Below, in pieces: positions 12,398 through 18,754 of a DNA stretch of 32,000 nucleotides. This DNA comes from Candidatus Peribacter riflensis (GTDB lineage Bacteria; Patescibacteriota; Gracilibacteria; Peribacterales; Peribacteraceae): NCBI GenBank assembly GCA_001430755.1, contig CP013062.1, positions 150,001 through 182,000 of the forward strand. The letters run 5' to 3'. Position 1 is the stretch's first letter. The number at the start of each line of letters is the position of its first letter. Made by a program: the position numbers and the translations under genes. Under the pieces are notes generated by a model that ran no database searches, had not been told where the DNA came from, and saw nothing but the letters and a program-made list of their open reading frames with translations.

Positions 12398-12501
12398 TAG
12401 GATTGAATATCCTCTGTTGAATCGCACCGACGAAAAAGCATATTTTTAATTACTGTCTAGAAAGATAGACAAGGTAGTGACTTGGTTCGATTGTTTAGCA
12501 C

Positions 12502-12825
12502 ATGCAAACCACTCAGCAAGAGATCGAAAGAGTACTTGAGAAAGTACAGATTATGTCCCTTCCAGAGAATGAACATATTTTTGATTTACATGTTCATGAA
12601 GAGAATAACATTTGGTTTATTGGCGGATGCGTTGGACCGTATGCGCACACCCTCGCCGACGGACAACCATATCCAGTACTGTGTCCATTACCTGTGTCTG
12701 ATTTAGAATTTACATCGAAAGAGGAAGCACTTGAATTTGCACAAGAGGTACACGATGTTTTGTTCGAGAGGGGGCTGGAACCCGATGCATCTACCTTTCG
12801 CCTTCTTGAAAGACAGTCTGTCTGA
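12502..12825 (+). CDS. hypothetical protein (107 aa), island-encoded
   Basis: This is the only sizeable ORF in this stretch and I recognised no family. A nested hairpin ending in a T-run follows it. Confidence 0.5.
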   Translation: MQTTQQEIERVLEKVQIMSLPENEHIFDLHVHEENNIWFIGGCVGPYAHTLADGQPYPVLCPLPVSDLEFTSKEEALEFAQEVHDVLFERGLEPDASTFRLLERQSV

Positions 12826-12883
12826 AGAAGGTGAGACACAGTTGCGGCAGGAGTAACGGCCAGAGAGGACGTGCTTATTTACC

Positions 12884-12958
12884 GGAAGATGCTTCACGCT
12901 TACGTTTCCGATTTTCAGTGGAGATACAATAATCGGAAGGCTTCACAGCATCTTTTTT
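12884..12958 (+). terminator. nested stem structure ending in T6, a terminator-like element
   Basis: The outer stem pairs AAGATGCT (12886-12893) with AGCATCTT (12947-12954). The inner stem pairs TTCCGATT (12906-12913) with AATCGGAA (12931-12938). TTTT follows. Confidence 0.4.
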
Positions 12959-13020
12959 GATCTGCTCCCTTCACGCGTGTTGTCGCGGCAAGCTCTAGGA
13001 GCTTGAAAAACTGATTACGG

Positions 13021-13416
13021 TTAGTCTTCATGTTTTTCAGGAAGCAGTCCTACTGAATCTCCGCTAAACAGCCAATTTACTACTATATATGCTAGTCCAA
13101 GTACCTTTGCCAAATTTTCAGTAATTAAAAGACCAATAAGCCACTTGGCACCTTCATCTTGTGGCGCAAATACTCCAACTCCAATTAGGGGAATCATTAC
13201 CATGTCGTAAATCACGATAAGAACGATGCACAATAGAATCCAACCAGACCATTTCTTTCTCATTGCGATAATGTCTTGTTTTTCTTGTGCAAGAAGCATC
13301 GCAGTCATCCTTCTATCTTCCAATTGAGAAAAGAGGGTAACGGGTATGGTTGGTGTCATACTTCTTTTTGTACCCAAGAGTTTAAGCGCCTCATTTTTTG
13401 TTGGCAGTGAATTCAT
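13021..13416 (-). CDS. small membrane protein (131 aa, 2-3 predicted TM helices), translationally coupled to the ImmA-like gene
   Basis: Hydrophobic segments WILLCIVLIVIYDMVMIPLIGVGVF and WLIGLLI...LGLAYIVVNWLF. Its ATG at 13416 overlaps the upstream TGA (ATGA overlap). A GTG at 13422 is an alternative start. Confidence 0.7.
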   Translation of the reverse strand: MNSLPTKNEALKLLGTKRSMTPTIPVTLFSQLEDRRMTAMLLAQEKQDIIAMRKKWSGWILLCIVLIVIYDMVMIPLIGVGVFAPQDEGAKWLIGLLITENLAKVLGLAYIVVNWLFSGDSVGLLPEKHED

Positions 13417-13940
13417 ATCCACTTCAGTCTAAATTTGATAACATCAGTGGATACGCCAAATATACCAGCTAAGAGTTCTTGATCTGCGTCGGTCTTATTA
13501 AGACTATATTGCTTCATGATTTTTTTGAGCATATCTAGTGGAACCAATAGACTCGCAGCAAAACAATTCGCCTCCTTCTCTATTGGATTATCTTCTTTTG
13601 GACGTGGATACCTTGGTAAAACTCCATACTCATTTGGTTTATGTCCTAGAATAAAATGACCAAGTTCATGAGCAATAGTAAAAGTTTGTCTATTTGGTGG
13701 GTCTGCACGATTCACAAAAATGATCTTTTGTTCTGGATCAAAGAAGCCAGCAACATCTCTCAATGTTTCTGGAAACTGAAGTACTTTCACAGTTAGGCCA
13801 TGTTTTTCTGCAAGACGGGTAATTGGAATTATTGGTTCCTCAATTTCATACTGCCGCAAAATTTCAGCAGCCTTATCTTTCGCCATATCGTATCGAGGTG
13901 AAAGAATAGCTGTCATATGCGCAAAGAATCTCACATTCAT
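13413..13940 (-). CDS. ImmA/IrrE-family (COG2856) zinc metallopeptidase
   Basis: The HEXXH motif HELGH lies at 13656-13670 in the context FTIAHELGHFILGH. The family-typical EKEANCFAASLLVP lies downstream. Alternative ATG starts are at 13916 and 13886, and the track start at 13961 is TTG. Confidence 0.88.
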   Translation of the reverse strand: MNVRFFAHMTAILSPRYDMAKDKAAEILRQYEIEEPIIPITRLAEKHGLTVKVLQFPETLRDVAGFFDPEQKIIFVNRADPPNRQTFTIAHELGHFILGHKPNEYGVLPRYPRPKEDNPIEKEANCFAASLLVPLDMLKKIMKQYSLNKTDADQELLAGIFGVSTDVIKFRLKWI

Positions 13941-14120
13941 ACAACTAGCACAAACTGACAATCATCTTATTTAGTATGAAAAGTATTGTTTTAGGTGCCA
14001 GTAATGAGTTTATGCAACTGTTGATCCTAGTCATAAAGGGGTAGTTACCTATTTACTTGGGTCCCAGACAGGGTTTTTTGAAGGTTGGGTTTTAGGAATG
14101 GGAGGGCAAGACGGTCGGGA

Positions 14121-15785
14121 TCAAGCAAAACAACCCTTTAGATATTCAATAAAATTAATCGCCTTTAGAAGTATCCGCTCAAACCCTATTTGGTATCCAA
14201 CTTTGTCGATGCCGAATTTCTTTAACAAAGCATCATATTCTTTGCCCTTTTTATGTGCCGCCCCTTTTGATCTTAGCTTCTGCAAATCACGTAGGAAGGA
14301 AATATGCAATTCGGCATCAGCACAGCTTTTTTCAGACATAAAACGAGAAAGCCATGTGATGCTTCCTTGTTTTTCTTTATTAATGTATTGCCGAGAACAG
14401 TGCTTGATCAATTCTTCTATATTGATTGATTCGATCAGGACGTGAGCCAATGACAAAATTTGATTATCAAATTCTGCCTGCGTATTTCGCAGAGGAATGT
14501 GCAGCGAATTTAGATGATGCGCATCCTTCTTCGGTAACTCTCCGAATAATTCCCAGCTGTTCTTCTCCTCCCAATCCTTTCTAAAAATTGAAAACCTATG
14601 TCTGAAAAGGAGGTCCGCTTTTTCTGGCTCTGAAAACTGCGCATAAAAATCTCTTTTCAACGATGTCTTGCTGATTGCTTCACCTGGAACGACATTGTGC
14701 GCAAGCCAATGAGCATGATCTTCAAAAGGAAGATCACGTCCCAGATCACCTAAATAAGCAGAAACATAATTTTTGAGATTGTTATCAATGTACATGCTCC
14801 ACATATGACCACAGGTGAGATGTCCATCGTGAACGGTGTATTTCGGGTCATTATAATACTTTTCCAACACTTCTCGCTTGAAGAACACCCGCGTGAGATA
14901 TTGGGGAGCATCAGGATTGGCACCGAAAAAATTTCCAAGCATATGGTGATTGCATGTGTATGACACAGGATCACCGTTTTCGTCTGTTTTAATTACATAC
15001 TTGGGATATTCTCGCTCCTCTTCCTCATCCTGTTTATAAGGCCAAATTCCGCTTTTCTCTTTGGGTAAACCAGTAAGAATTACTTTTCCGATCATTCTTG
15101 AAAAACTTGCTCGTGTATCCCCTCCGAATTTGTCCCGCCACGTCATACAAGTAAATGAAAACCGAGCACTGTCATTCGTATGTTCAAAGGCGATACGATC
15201 TTCATCGATGCCTAATTCTTCCAGGGTCTTATATGACCATCTGCAAAAAGTAAAACATAGGCACAAAGCCATGTCCTTGATCCCGAGAAATTGCCTAACT
15301 TGTTTCAGATGAGCACCAATGTAATCACCATTCATCTTTACTACATCTTCCAAATCTCCATTGTCTAAGACTTTTTGAAACGTGTTTTTTTGTTCATCAA
15401 AAAATAGATTGTGGTAGAGACGAAACTCCTCATTTAGTTCTTTGTATCCGTCTTTTACACCACCAAAGTCCCTTTCGATAATTAGTGGTTCATAATCATA
15501 AAAACTGCCGAAACGCTTGTACTCGATGGTTCCCCTTTTTCCTTTGGTAAACCCAACACAGCCTGGTTGACCATCTATCGAACAATCATGCCAATCCGAA
15601 CGCTTAAGTTCTTCGGGAATTCGTGAAGTAGGAATCATGCAGCAGTGAAACAAAAGATCATCAACTAGCTGCCTACTCTCCCGTCTTTCTCTTGAGTCAT
15701 GCAAGGTAAGCCATTGCTCTGTGCGCATTTTATTCAATACATACTCACGAAGATCCTCTTGGAGTAACCATGACTTGTCGCTCAT
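14121..15785 (-). CDS. large uncharacterised protein (554 aa) with a C-terminal HEPN-like Rx5H motif
   Basis: Long, clean AT-rich ORF. The C-terminal helical region contains LQKLRSKGAAHKKG, with the R and H codons at 14271-14273 and 14253-14255. His/Cys clusters occur at CNHHMLGNF and VHDGHLTCGHMW. I recognised no family for the first roughly 450 aa. Confidence 0.85.
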   Translation of the reverse strand: MSDKSWLLQEDLREYVLNKMRTEQWLTLHDSRERRESRQLVDDLLFHCCMIPTSRIPEELKRSDWHDCSIDGQPGCVGFTKGKRGTIEYKRFGSFYDYEPLIIERDFGGVKDGYKELNEEFRLYHNLFFDEQKNTFQKVLDNGDLEDVVKMNGDYIGAHLKQVRQFLGIKDMALCLCFTFCRWSYKTLEELGIDEDRIAFEHTNDSARFSFTCMTWRDKFGGDTRASFSRMIGKVILTGLPKEKSGIWPYKQDEEEEREYPKYVIKTDENGDPVSYTCNHHMLGNFFGANPDAPQYLTRVFFKREVLEKYYNDPKYTVHDGHLTCGHMWSMYIDNNLKNYVSAYLGDLGRDLPFEDHAHWLAHNVVPGEAISKTSLKRDFYAQFSEPEKADLLFRHRFSIFRKDWEEKNSWELFGELPKKDAHHLNSLHIPLRNTQAEFDNQILSLAHVLIESINIEELIKHCSRQYINKEKQGSITWLSRFMSEKSCADAELHISFLRDLQKLRSKGAAHKKGKEYDALLKKFGIDKVGYQIGFERILLKAINFIEYLKGCFA

Positions 15786-15791
15786 GTGTCA

Positions 15792-15818
15792 ATTATAGGG
15801 CACATGGGTCACATGCCC
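15792..15818 (-). promoter_or_regulatory. TATAAT box 6 nt upstream of the ATG, plus an adjacent imperfect palindrome (possible operator)
   Basis: The minus strand reads GGGCATGTGACCCATGTGCCC-TATAAT-tgacac-ATG. In the 21-nt palindrome, 7 of 10 positions are Watson-Crick pairs and 1 is a wobble pair. Confidence 0.4.
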
Positions 15819-15822
15819 ATAG

Positions 15823-15839: not shown

Positions 15840-15868
15840 AAAGCAGACCGTTCCGCATGTTTCGTTCT

Positions 15869-17296
15869 TCAGCTCCCGTACCGGCTGCGGAGCAGAACAT
15901 CCTGCCAGTTCATTTCGTAGAATTCCTTGGTCGCCGAAGTCTCCCGCGCTTTGTTCAGCCACTCCTGCCATCGTTCATCGGCTTGCGGCTGCGTGCTTTC
16001 TTCGAGGACAAGGCCGTACACATCACCCGAGAGCATTTTCAGCTCCAGCATGTCGATGCGCGAAGTCGGCAGCGCGGCCAGTCGCCGGTTCAGCCGGAAG
16101 ATCGCCTGCTCCACGGGGAACACGGTCGCCACGGCGTACATCCAGACAAACGCGACCACGATGAACTTCACCATGTCGGGTTTGCCCTTCTGAAAGAGCG
16201 CCGCAATCAACCGGACAAAGAGGAGGATCGAAAACAGCACGGTGTAGAGCGCGAAGAACTTTTCGTAGCTGAAGCCGTAGGTGTACACGTACATGCCCAT
16301 GCGGTTGGCTGCCGAGAACAGGAGCAGGAGCGACGCGACCATGAATACCATGAGGATGTGCTGCACGGGCCGGGCCGTCCGGCGGTAGTAAATGAGAAAG
16401 AGCAACGCGTTGATGCCGCTCAAGAAGAAGAGCTCCCAGAAGCCGTTTTTCACCAGCCGTTCCGTTTCGAGGAACTCCGTCGGAAGCGTCGGCACCCACA
16501 GGGAGGAGAGTTGCGTGAGGAGGAAGAGGATGTAGAGACCGAGCACGCCCCCCAGGACGATGCCGGAAATAACGCTGTCCATGGGCTTCATTTGCGTCGA
16601 TGCGAACGTTTCCTCCCGTGTCCAGCGGACGATGCCGGCGAGCAAGAGGAGCGTAAGCAGGACAAAAACGCCGAAGCGCACCAGTGTTTCCACAGAAATG
16701 ATTTTCAGCAACGGTTCGTAGACCTGCCGGACCAGTTCGGCAAAGCGCGCATCAGCGTCGGAGAGGAGCGGGATGAAGATGAGGCAGGCCACAACAGCAA
16801 AAATCACCACACCGATTGCGATGCGCTTGTGCAGGTCGGACCGCTTGTTGCCGGAGGGCAGAACGCTCCCGATGGTCAGTGACACGGCTGTTGCCAGCGC
16901 GCTCACGATCCCGACGAAACGTTCAACGATCCTCAGGAGCCAGCTGATATTCCACACGACGCTTTGGGAGTTGCGCGTCGAAGACACGATCCATGCGGCT
17001 GCGAAAAGCGTCGGCACGACCAGGCAGTTCACCAGTTTGATGTACGGGTTTTCGTACAGGGCATAGCTGACCGCAATCAATCCCAGCGGTATGAGAAAGA
17101 GCAGGTCCGCCCGTTGCCACGTTCGTTTTTCGGACGCGAAGGCATAGATCGCCATGGCGCCCACAATGAACACGGATATATTCCAGCCGAATGCCGAGAC
17201 GTCTTTCTCCCAGACATTCCACGCGGTCAGCACCCAGAAGAGGGAGAGCGCCAGCGCACCGTAGACGGTCATTCTTTTCCGCCAAGAAGCATCCAT
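15869..17296 (-). CDS. polytopic membrane protein (475 aa; DUF4153/DUF4173-like is my guess)
   Basis: Many hydrophobic helices. The ORF track extends it to 17644, but that extension reads through tRNA-Gln. The first ATG downstream of the tRNA is at 17296 (MDASWRKRMTVYG...). Confidence 0.8.
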   Translation of the reverse strand: MDASWRKRMTVYGALALSLFWVLTAWNVWEKDVSAFGWNISVFIVGAMAIYAFASEKRTWQRADLLFLIPLGLIAVSYALYENPYIKLVNCLVVPTLFAAAWIVSSTRNSQSVVWNISWLLRIVERFVGIVSALATAVSLTIGSVLPSGNKRSDLHKRIAIGVVIFAVVACLIFIPLLSDADARFAELVRQVYEPLLKIISVETLVRFGVFVLLTLLLLAGIVRWTREETFASTQMKPMDSVISGIVLGGVLGLYILFLLTQLSSLWVPTLPTEFLETERLVKNGFWELFFLSGINALLFLIYYRRTARPVQHILMVFMVASLLLLFSAANRMGMYVYTYGFSYEKFFALYTVLFSILLFVRLIAALFQKGKPDMVKFIVVAFVWMYAVATVFPVEQAIFRLNRRLAALPTSRIDMLELKMLSGDVYGLVLEESTQPQADERWQEWLNKARETSATKEFYEMNWQDVLLRSRYGS

Positions 17297-17384
17297 GGAG
17301 AGGGAAGGAAAGAAGTCCGATGGTAGCAGCGTTGGAGGTGTGGTGCTATGTAGTTCCCGAGCGGGAACGAGGAACGAAGCCGGA

Positions 17385-17459
17385 TGGCTGGGGAGGAGGG
17401 ATTCGAACCCCCGAATGCCTGCTCCAGAGGCAGGTGCCTTACCACTTGGCGACTCCCCA
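17385..17459 (-). tRNA. tRNA-Gln (anticodon CTG), CCA encoded
   Basis: The minus strand reads TGGGGAG-TC-GCCAAGTGGTAAGGC-A-CCTGC-CTCTGGA-GCAGG-CATTC-GGGGG-TTCGAAT-CCCTC-CTCCCCA-G-CCA. This is the same architecture as E. coli tRNA-Gln, including the U1-A72 pair. Confidence 0.93.
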
Positions 17460-17526
17460 ACGTGAAACGATGATAGCAGGAATGGGCTCTCGCCCGCCGT
17501 AGTCCCGCGAAGCGGGCGAAGGTGGG

Positions 17527-17537
17527 CTCCCCAACGT
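17527..17537 (-). repeat. 11-nt repeat of the tRNA-Gln 5' junction
   Basis: CTCCCCAACGT at 17527-17537 equals 17453-17463, which comprises tRNA positions 1-7 plus 4 upstream nt. The spacing is 74 nt. Confidence 0.7.
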
Positions 17538-17656
17538 ATGCAGGAGGATAGCAAAGCCTGCTCTGTGTGGAAACGACTCATAGGTTTTTCTTCCCGGCTT
17601 GTTTTCTTCAGAGCTGAGACAGGATCTCTTTCATCCGTTCCCACGCCGCATTCCGC

Positions 17657-18094: not shown

Positions 18095-18754
18095 GTTCTA
18101 GAGTGCCTTCAAAAAGGGGATAAGACGCCTTGCGGGAGCTCAAGGAAAAGATATACAATGTGCACGTATCCATACGAATTGGGATCCGAACGGCCCCGTG
18201 CCTAAGGAGCCCTTTTCTTTAAGGTAAATGCAATTTTGGCTTGGATGCCGGGGTTTTCCAGATAATCAAATAATTCCGATCCGAGTTTGCTATACAGAGA
18301 GGAGGCAAATTTTCTATCCGGAAAAAGTAATTTCTTGAACATTCCTTTCTGAATCAGAAAATCAACAACTTTTTTATAATCGCCGTCACCTGAAACAAGG
18401 AGCACCTTATTGAAATCTTTTCTCTCAATGATTGTTTTCATGATTTCAAAAACGATATCGGTATCGACATTGCCTTTCTTGGTGCCTTTCAGGGTGGAGA
18501 TATGTTCTTTGAACAGGACGATGAAGCCTGCCTTTTGCAGATTGCTGTAGAGACTCTGTTGTTCTTCCGAAACGTAACCGAGAAAATAGTAGGCCTCATC
18601 CACCTGATATTTATCCTTCAGATATATCCTGAATTTCGCATGGTCGACCTTCCAGCCGTTCTGCGTAGTGCCGAGGTGTAGGTTTTGCCCGTCAATGAAC
18701 GCAAGATTCGATTCCTTCTCCATGCGGGGATTTTATCACACTGTCACGCCGGGA
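18095..18754. mobile_element. 660-bp AT-rich insertion carrying only an NYN-domain gene, bounded by 32-bp direct repeats
   Basis: Perfect direct repeats flank it. Composition shifts sharply by eye. The target gene's 3' end was replaced and the displaced tail is retained. No recombinase is present. Confidence 0.6.
18202..18723 (-). CDS. NYN-domain (LabA/DUF88-like, PIN-like fold) putative RNase
   Basis: LAFIDGQNL, KGNVDTDI and LLVSGDGDY match the acidic motifs of NYN/LabA domains. TGATAAAAT lies 6 nt upstream of the ATG. Confidence 0.88.
   Translation of the reverse strand: MEKESNLAFIDGQNLHLGTTQNGWKVDHAKFRIYLKDKYQVDEAYYFLGYVSEEQQSLYSNLQKAGFIVLFKEHISTLKGTKKGNVDTDIVFEIMKTIIERKDFNKVLLVSGDGDYKKVVDFLIQKGMFKKLLFPDRKFASSLYSKLGSELFDYLENPGIQAKIAFTLKKRAP

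Follow-up and report, generated by a model that had tools for sequence, protein, structure and literature searches.

An AT-rich island of Candidatus Peribacter riflensis probably carries two separate conflict modules: a member of a large unnamed protein family and an ImmA-type protease paired with a small membrane protein

Introduction

The chromosome of Candidatus Peribacter riflensis, a member of the Peregrinibacteria within the Candidate Phyla Radiation (CPR), contains an island of AT-rich DNA, and the question raised by its genes is whether they make up one system or several. The island occupies positions 12398–15822 (no strand assigned) of the window, by which we mean the whole stretch of 32,000 nucleotides that was analyzed (contig CP013062.1, positions 150,001–182,000 of the forward strand); all coordinates given below refer to this window unless a locus identifier precedes them. 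Three co-directional genes on the minus strand are at issue. They encode a 554-residue protein (14121–15785), a metallopeptidase of the ImmA/IrrE (M78) type (13413–13916) and a 131-residue protein with two transmembrane-like hydrophobic segments (13021–13416), which we refer to as the 2-TM protein.

A first-pass annotation of this DNA had read the three genes as a single protease-gated effector unit. In such a unit ImmA would sense infection and gate the 554-residue protein as a HEPN-like effector, with the membrane protein serving as an anchor or co-effector. The analysis reported here leads to a different answer. The island is probably horizontally acquired DNA with two independent conflict modules, the 554-residue protein being one and the protease with its membrane partner the other, which have become neighbors by chance in Candidatus Peribacter.

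Results and Discussion

Composition and synteny of the island

The GC content along the window drops from about 0.60 to 0.38–0.42 between positions of about 12400 and 15800 and goes back up outside these limits. The island genes, at 0.404 for the 554-residue protein, 0.379 for ImmA, 0.391 for the 2-TM protein and 0.435 for a small additional open reading frame (ORF107), stand against 0.603 for the SLH/hydrolase gene on one flank, 0.581 for the DUF4153 gene on the other and 0.586 for the window without the island. The DNA is compositionally foreign to the chromosome, and the description of about 3.4 kb of AT-rich DNA between GC-rich genes (0.38–0.44 within, 0.58–0.60 in the flanks) holds, as do the open reading frames that had been called in it. 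A search for flanking direct repeats or att sites of the island turned up nothing beyond short matches such as chance would produce.

We also asked how the three genes are distributed elsewhere. Eighty loci with a homologue of the 554-residue protein were examined together with as much as 8 kb of DNA to either side, and phmmer was used to look for relatives of the 2-TM and M78 proteins. None of the 80 loci contains a 2-TM homologue, and none contains the pair. An M78 gene is present in only one of them, where it encodes 390 residues and lies at a distance of 3.9 kb in the opposite orientation, and there is no M78 gene among the 149 immediate neighbors of 554-family genes. Seen from the other side, a 554 homologue occurs in none of the other pair loci examined (L089–L104 and the remaining pair loci). 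Since the three genes are not syntenic elsewhere, the three-gene unit fails the test of refutation that the first-pass annotation had set for it.

What spoke for a single system was the arrangement in Peribacter itself. The trio is adjacent and co-directional, has a similar GC content (0.38–0.40), shows no detectable intrinsic terminator between the 554 gene and ImmA, and is kept in all recovered Peribacter contigs, the same locus being present again in NCBI assemblies (L081, L082) and several metagenome contigs. These contigs, however, are near-identical copies of one population and so provide no independent evidence for the trio. The lack of a detected terminator does weigh against two independent modules, and cotranscription in Peribacter is possible for that reason. 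On the other hand, the 554 gene has a promoter-like site of its own, and its relatives are found alone or with other partners. Taken with the synteny results, this makes one protease-gated system improbable, and we proceed with two modules.

A large unnamed family with a probable HEPN-like domain

The 554-residue protein has no match in Pfam, NCBIfam or PADLOC, and likewise none in PHROGs; 29 diverse relatives have no Pfam or PADLOC match either, and PDB sequence and profile searches with the whole protein and with its C-terminal domain returned chance matches only. The family is nonetheless large. We recovered 384 homologous clusters at E ≤ 1e-3, with about 35–43% identity across the full length, and homologues are present in at least 462 species-representative genomes from many bacterial phyla and from archaea (Methanothrix, Methanophagales and Methanomicrobiales). 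One relative, UniProt A0A4P6EZR2 from Paenibacillus protaetiae (P0021), is named "ApeA N-terminal domain-containing protein"; the Pfam-A copy used here gave no match for it even at E ≤ 10, and we found no source for the name.

An AlphaFold2 model of the protein (mean predicted local distance difference test, pLDDT, 87.3) has a beta-rich stretch between residue 25 and about residue 344 and an all-helical C-terminal part, so that the predicted architecture is a beta-rich region of about 370 residues followed by a helical domain. The N-terminal region matched no known domain family. An alignment of 30 sequences has 35 invariant residues, and the invariant polar ones in the N-terminal and middle regions include E116, E120, R122, H125, D334, N335 and D347.

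The C-terminal domain comprises residues 372–554 (14124–14672, minus strand). It contains R505 (codon 14271–14273) and H511 (codon 14253–14255), both invariant across the 30 sequences within the motif LRSxGxAHRKG. The Rx5H motif that had been noted in the C-terminus of the protein is indeed there, and the survey of relatives extends it: 118 of 119 full-length family members have Rx4-6H, as Rx5H in 109, Rx4H in eight and Rx6H in one, a variation in spacing that covers exactly the range of 4–6 by which HEPN domains are defined. Residues 372–554 were also modeled separately (pLDDT 90.3; predicted template modeling score, pTM, 0.85). In this model the arginine is at position 134 of a long helix spanning 120–137, that is, at its end, and the histidine is at position 140 in the loop that follows. 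The polar residue after the arginine, S506, is at least 90% conserved, and D440 in an earlier helix of the domain is invariant. In the published description of HEPN domains the motif straddles the end of core helix 3 and the beginning of the loop that leads to helix 4, its arginine being followed by a polar residue (Anantharaman et al. 2013, PMC3710099), and the modeled placement of R505 and H511 at a helix end and loop start matches that definition.

The only exception to the motif among the 119 relatives is P0027, an 857-residue protein encoded on a Logan contig of 4352 bp, which has lost the histidine and has a PNP_UDP_1 domain (residues 632–836, E 4e-12) fused at its C-terminus. PNP-like domains are ATP-nucleosidase effectors in other defense systems. 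P0027 is an apparent effector swap, and, although it is one case, it fits the motif being an effector site that becomes dispensable once another effector is attached.

Several results weigh against a HEPN assignment. A Foldseek search of the C-terminal model against the PDB (best E 0.5) and BFVD gave nothing significant, Pfam scans of 30 full proteins and 22 C-terminal domains found no HEPN family at E ≤ 10, and the C-terminal profile search of the PDB yielded nothing. With the full model the only significant Foldseek match in the PDB was to Avs3 (8dgc, chains A and B), at a probability of 1.0 and an E of about 8e-4 over some 217 aligned columns, followed by weak matches to START domains with probabilities of at most 0.2. 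The output for Avs3, whose N-terminal part is a Cap4-like nuclease, came without aligned regions, so a nuclease-like N-terminal part of the 554-residue protein is conceivable. Resemblance of the helical C-terminal domain to the four-helix up-down bundle of solved HEPN domains is confined to weak Foldseek matches, among which HEPN structures are over-represented; they include the HEPN proteins 6m6w_B and 9oij_A. The same weak matches include 1wwp, a HEPN structure (PMC3710099).

It is thus conceivable that the protein is not a HEPN RNase at all, and that the arginine and histidine form another kind of site, for example for ligand or nucleic-acid binding, with the active part being N-terminal or the protein being no more than a sensor, or an adaptor that serves PIN toxins and similar partners. 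The Avs3 match, the missing HEPN fold or profile match and the many invariant polar residues in the N-terminal and middle regions would all suit such a protein, and so would a subfamily, described below, in which a PIN toxin is coupled to a conserved C-terminal tail, the usual position of an antitoxin. Against this stand the presence of Rx4-6H in 118 of 119 relatives at the exact HEPN spacing, the loss of the histidine solely where a PNP-like effector is fused, the over-representation of HEPN structures among the weak Foldseek matches, and the position of the motif, which in the model is where HEPN domains place it. We consider a non-HEPN protein unlikely. The HEPN-like label of the first-pass annotation can be kept for the motif and its modeled position, while a match to a HEPN fold or profile was not obtained, and we describe the C-terminal domain as probably HEPN-like.

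If the HEPN-like reading is right, the 554 gene (14121–15785, minus strand) would work as a stand-alone, probably leaderless-transcribed module. The N-terminal residues, about 370 in number, would sense a cue or keep the enzyme latent. By analogy with ApeA, PrrC and AbiJ-type proteins, the C-terminal domains might dimerize to form a composite Arg/His site with metal-independent RNase activity, and triggered cleavage of tRNA or mRNA would then arrest translation and growth. All steps beyond a conserved motif in the right structural place are our inference.

Neighbors and relatives of the 554 family

The neighborhoods of the family members are those of a conflict gene. Nearest neighbors (n = 149) include PIN (13), HsdS, the specificity subunit of type I restriction-modification (R-M) systems (6–7), the HsdR N-terminal domain (4), Uma2 (4) and Mrr, Eco57I, N6 methylase and integrase (2 each). 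Relatives of the protein had been suggested as worth checking for defense-type settings, and restriction-modification and toxin genes are found among their neighbors. Of 76 loci, 65 have a family gene that is poorer in GC than its flanks (median difference −0.069), and the protein has no match among 50,697 phage records. What emerges is a conflict gene that is mobile, stands by itself and can exchange its partners.

Two kinds of coupling recur. In five loci (L018, L036, L045, L046 and L065) the start of the 554-family gene overlaps the hsdS stop by 1–4 nt. Where the contig reaches far enough, hsdS is preceded by a large gene that these loci share, the probable hsdM; a probable hsdR, likewise large, follows the 554-family gene in L018, L045 and L065. 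In 12 of the 80 loci (L013, L022, L029, L032, L039, L048–L051, L054, L061 and L063; e.g., L013:7989-10180), which belong to four phyla (Chloroflexota, Poribacteria, Latescibacterota and Nitrospinota), the stop of the 554-family gene and the start of a 136-residue PIN gene share ATGA. The PIN-coupled members carry a conserved C-terminal tail of about 50 residues ("...YAILDEMVG.VDSG.TDASVNHDEVIYEL"), and in these loci a 554-family protein of about 600 residues takes the place of the VapB antitoxin. A further homologue is found on plasmid pPma4326F of Pseudomonas syringae pv. maculicola (L105; NZ_CP047261.1, 137914–139494), where it comes immediately behind the GmtY/VPA1269-family/GmtX trio of a GMT mobile element. 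Such elements are characterized as rich in defensive and offensive tools (10.1101/2023.03.28.534373).

The likeness to VapBC is limited to this subfamily, that is, to the 12 of 80 loci with the tail and the ATGA overlap with a PIN (VapC-like) gene. It differs in that the antitoxin position is held by a protein of about 600 residues and not by a small DNA-binding VapB, and the copy in the window has neither the tail nor a PIN gene.

The family resembles the anticodon nucleases PrrC and RloC in having a C-terminal HEPN-type Rx4-6H motif, and five of its members overlap hsdS as described above. The position of prrC in EcoprrI is the same as that of the 554-family gene in the hsdS-overlap loci. 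The 554-residue protein differs from PrrC and RloC in having no ABC-ATPase N-terminal domain, and the window copy lies outside any R-M operon. The association of PrrC and RloC with R-M systems is listed in PMC3710099.

ApeA is a single-gene HEPN abortive-infection protein (Gao 2020; 10.64898/2026.01.26.701840; 10.64898/2026.03.20.713152). The similarities are a single polypeptide of about 550–580 residues, a C-terminal HEPN-type domain, a non-catalytic N-terminal part and R-M neighborhoods. ApeA from E. coli, however, is mainly alpha-helical, with a catenin-like N-terminal and a PafA-like Mid domain, whereas the first 370 or so residues of the 554-residue protein are predicted to be beta-rich. 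The ApeA models of PADLOC and Pfam (HEPN_Apea, ApeA_NTD1) matched none of the 30 family members, P0021 included, although whether the library copies used contain these models was not checked. With no model match and without the alpha-helical N-terminal and Mid domains, the protein was not assigned to ApeA. DARNA was likewise set aside, as its HEPN domain is N-terminal and the order of domains is therefore different.

An ImmA-type protease paired with a two-segment membrane protein

The second module consists of the genes for ImmA (13413–13916, minus strand) and the 2-TM protein (13021–13416, minus strand). The identification of the former as an ImmA/IrrE protease is firm: it matches Pfam PF06114 with E 1.3e-23 and 83.5 bits, above the gathering cut-off of 22, and in PADLOC it matches capP at 7e-23 and 15 RmrA models at E values from 3e-16 to 1.6e-3. 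All PADLOC matches concern the protease core; the RmrA profiles, which have 357–400 positions, are matched only in their central part (for example, 144–267 of 383). The HELGH motif (13656–13670) and a downstream EKEAN are conserved in the ImmA alignment, and the protein has no helix-turn-helix (HTH) domain. The gene had been called as 13413–13940, and there is a gene there, but alignment of homologues favors the ATG at 13916, which gives 167 residues, over the alternative starts at 13940 and 13961. The overlap of the two genes stands as first described: positions 13413–13416 read tcat on the plus strand, thus ATGA on the minus strand, and place the ImmA stop over the 2-TM start, an arrangement that would couple the translation of the two.

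The 2-TM protein looked like an orphan in a word-index search, which gave four matches, all from Peribacter. This was a limit of sensitivity, as an exhaustive HMMER search recovered a family of 192 representative clusters. The protein has no match in Pfam, NCBIfam or PHROGs. Members of the family have a variable N-terminus followed by a juxtamembrane segment, A..L.AEE..DII.MRK.WS, and a K..GLAYIVV.FLF motif near the C-terminus. In an alignment of five sequences D71, within or next to the first hydrophobic segment, and K104, within or next to the second, are invariant, and all five keep a Glu or Asp three residues before K104. This pattern hints at a polar face, which might line a pore, or at a salt bridge within the membrane.

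We also note a protein of 3835 residues (P0336) in which ten separate stretches match the C-terminal half (residues 72–118) of the 2-TM protein; by sequence, it may contain a repeated form of the hydrophobic hairpin.

The pairing of the two genes is conserved from whichever side it is approached. On the ImmA side, six of the seven loci with homologues (36–58% identical; L089–L092, L112 and L113) have a 2-TM relative directly downstream, often overlapping, as an open reading frame of 110–136 residues that aligns with the 2-TM protein of the window or matches its family profile. The seventh locus (L111, Rhizobium mayense) has a look-alike partner that is HMM-negative. On the membrane-protein side, a metagenome scan together with two distant members provided 12 loci with readable upstream DNA, and in 11 of them an M78 gene lies immediately upstream with stop and start adjacent or overlapping. 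The two genes are a conserved, self-contained bicistronic cassette, and the first-pass view that the protease is tied to a small membrane protein is upheld. The members with a name belong to CPR lineages, Pacebacteria and Magasanikbacteria among them, and to a few Proteobacteria. A literature search on COG2856/M78 proteins with a transmembrane partner, or on WP_007250370, found no paper.

No HTH partner belongs to this cassette. The island has no HTH open reading frame, and neither an HTH gene nor a conserved small open reading frame is found upstream of ImmA in 11 related loci, in agreement with the first-pass annotation. That annotation had also allowed for an ordinary prophage regulatory region with an overlooked HTH repressor, and we considered an immunity region of a prophage or an integrative and conjugative element. 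It is true that ImmA homologues at 31–37% identity sit in immunity regions of temperate phages. Apart from the missing repressor, no phage structural gene and no integrase borders the island, whether in the window or in L081, and both the 554-residue and the 2-TM proteins are without a match in the 50,697 phage records. An immunity region of this kind is hardly credible here. A switch of the ImmR/ImmA type was rejected along with it, given that the defining adjacent XRE/HTH gene or fused HTH is absent here and in the 11 related loci.

The cassette changes its location from lineage to lineage. Its neighbors are different in every one and are mostly housekeeping genes, such as those of ribosomal operons and aminoacyl-tRNA synthetases. 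It lies between rpmD (L30) and rplO (L15) of the spc ribosomal operon in L113 (3001–3889), where the 2-TM gene was missed by annotators; directly after fusA in L097 (3372–4279); between msrB and msrA in L092 (4001–4875); and beside rplU/rpmA (L21/L27) in R. mayense (L111, 3001–3853). In nine of 11 loci the GC content of the pair is below that of the flanks (e.g., 0.356 versus 0.534 in L097). The changing genomic location and the low GC content point to a mobile accessory cassette.

Among known systems, RosmerTA is the closest. In NetFlax the ImmA protease domain ("D25") forms a hub: as the antitoxin RmrA it is paired with many toxins, in variable gene order (Ernits et al. 2023, PMC10440598), and RmrT_D5 of Gordonia phage Kita is a validated, membrane-located, depolarizing RosmerTA toxin of a system that protects against phages (PMC10440598). 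The likeness consists in a two-gene module of an ImmA/M78 protein and a partner, with a pairing conserved in 11 of 12 and six of seven loci, and the antitoxin-first, overlapping layout is classical. The opinion that the module fits no named system is therefore not sustained for the pair. Resemblance is nevertheless as far as we would go, since the pair shares the protease core and the pairing but does not have the HTH-bearing architecture of RmrA. By analogy, we infer that the 2-TM partner of ImmA is a candidate toxin.

ImmA shares its protease family and an intact HExxH with the repressor-cleaving switches ImmR/ImmA, DdrO/IrrE and CapH/CapP, the capP model being its best match in PADLOC. It differs from them in that there is no operon of a cyclic-oligonucleotide-based anti-phage signaling system (CBASS) or of a mobile element under its control here. 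CBASS CapH/CapP was rejected as an assignment: despite the match to the capP model, no CapH or CD-NTase gene is present in the window.

We propose that the pair (13021–13916, minus strand) may be a RosmerTA-like toxin-antitoxin module without HTH. The 2-TM protein would be the toxin, acting as a pore or by depolarization, and the positive-inside rule would place its N-terminus and its short C-terminal tail in the cytoplasm. There ImmA could bind or cleave the conserved juxtamembrane segment and so neutralize it. The reverse, in which cleavage activates the membrane protein, may equally be the case.

Some of the evidence pulls away from a toxin-antitoxin pair. The neighbors are not defense genes, no copy of the pair was found in the phage, plasmid or IMG/VR collections, the 2-TM protein matches no PADLOC model, and RmrA proteins, whose models have 357–400 positions and whose node often carries an N-terminal HTH (PMC10440598), contrast with an ImmA of 167 residues that is protease core only. 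The main rival is a small housekeeping or membrane-stress-signaling device that is not selfish, in which the membrane protein sequesters or activates the protease and the true substrate is encoded elsewhere. ImmA/IrrE proteases are classically stress-responsive regulators, and it is the housekeeping contexts (the spc operon, fusA, msrB/msrA and L21/L27), along with the absence from phage, plasmid and viral collections, that give this rival its weight. Against it stand a location that differs for each lineage and a GC content below the flanks. The tight stop–start coupling is the layout of classical type II toxin-antitoxin genes, and ImmA matches RmrA antitoxin models with no HTH substrate gene nearby. 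On balance we judge the signaling device rather unlikely and retain the toxin-antitoxin module as the working model.

Upstream region of the 554 gene and other features

The first-pass annotation had placed a TATAAT-N6-ATG promoter in front of the 554 gene, and the elements are present. TATAAT occupies 15797–15792 on the minus strand, with six bases to the ATG at 15785, and TGGGCA lies 16 nt upstream of it; this promoter-like site (15792–15819, minus strand; −35 TGGGCA, −10 TATAAT) has 10 of 12 consensus matches and a leaderless-type layout. Promoter-like matches are not in excess over chance in the region, with four observed against 8.1 expected, and among them only the position of the site before the 554 gene is informative. 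The stop of the upstream DUF4153 gene is followed by a terminator-like hairpin (15843–15856, minus strand), which sets this gene apart from the promoter of the 554 gene.

Between the two hexamers lies a 21-nt inverted repeat, GGGCACATGGGTCACATGCCC (15798–15818, no strand assigned), which occurs once in the window when no mismatch is allowed and also holds a CACATG direct repeat. It had been called a palindrome; the repeat is there, but it is imperfect, with seven of ten pairs matching. From its sequence and position it is a possible operator.

ORF107 (12502–12825, plus strand) encodes an acidic protein of 107 residues. It had been described as divergent; lying on the plus strand, it is in fact convergent with the 2-TM gene. 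It is called in every copy of the Peribacter locus and has no family match in Pfam, NCBIfam, PHROGs or PADLOC. No homologue was found in the pair loci (L089–L104 and the others examined) or in the 554-family loci, and it belongs to neither conserved module.

Two further observations concern the rest of the window. A second AT-rich islet at 18202–18723 (minus strand; GC about 0.40 against a background of 0.59) holds a gene of 173 residues, which some 750 bp separate from tRNA-Gln. In L081 the product of this gene matches the Pfam NYN domain, so it is predicted to be an accessory gene of RNase type. The mechanically called DUF4153 membrane protein of 591 residues (15869–17644) runs across tRNA-Gln(CTG) at 17385–17459 on the same strand; the gene is called with 475 residues in L081 and L082, which puts its start near 17296.

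Conclusions

In summary, the three genes of the AT-rich island are best explained by two modules that came to lie side by side. If this holds, the general lesson is that the adjacency of genes in one compositional island does not show that they work as a unit. Candidate defense and toxin-antitoxin modules of this general type are found often. The 554 family and the ImmA/2-TM pair are two uncharacterized, fairly widespread families with clear experimental handles.

Tentatively, and as a possibility that goes further than the separation of the two modules, both may be new families. The 554-residue protein could represent an immune sensor scaffold that is widespread in bacteria and archaea yet missing from all current catalogues, with a HEPN-like effector that can be swapped for a fused PNP-like nucleosidase domain, supplemented by a PIN toxin through a VapB-like tail, or wired as a guard to type I R-M. 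The pair could be a minimal, HTH-less, protease-controlled pore module, carried as an AT-rich cassette mainly in CPR/Patescibacteria and inserted even in ribosomal operons.

If the proposed readings of the two modules hold, a family with members in hundreds of species of bacteria and archaea, and without an entry in Pfam, NCBIfam or PADLOC, would join the single-protein HEPN-type defense nucleases, and its variants with hsdS overlap, PIN overlap or PNP-like fusion would provide ready material for comparing the ways in which different effectors are linked to sensing. ImmA with its 2-TM partner would be the smallest RosmerTA-like module. Because the pair lacks the HTH domain that is usually assumed to be the substrate of the protease, it makes possible a direct test of the target of an ImmA antitoxin protease.

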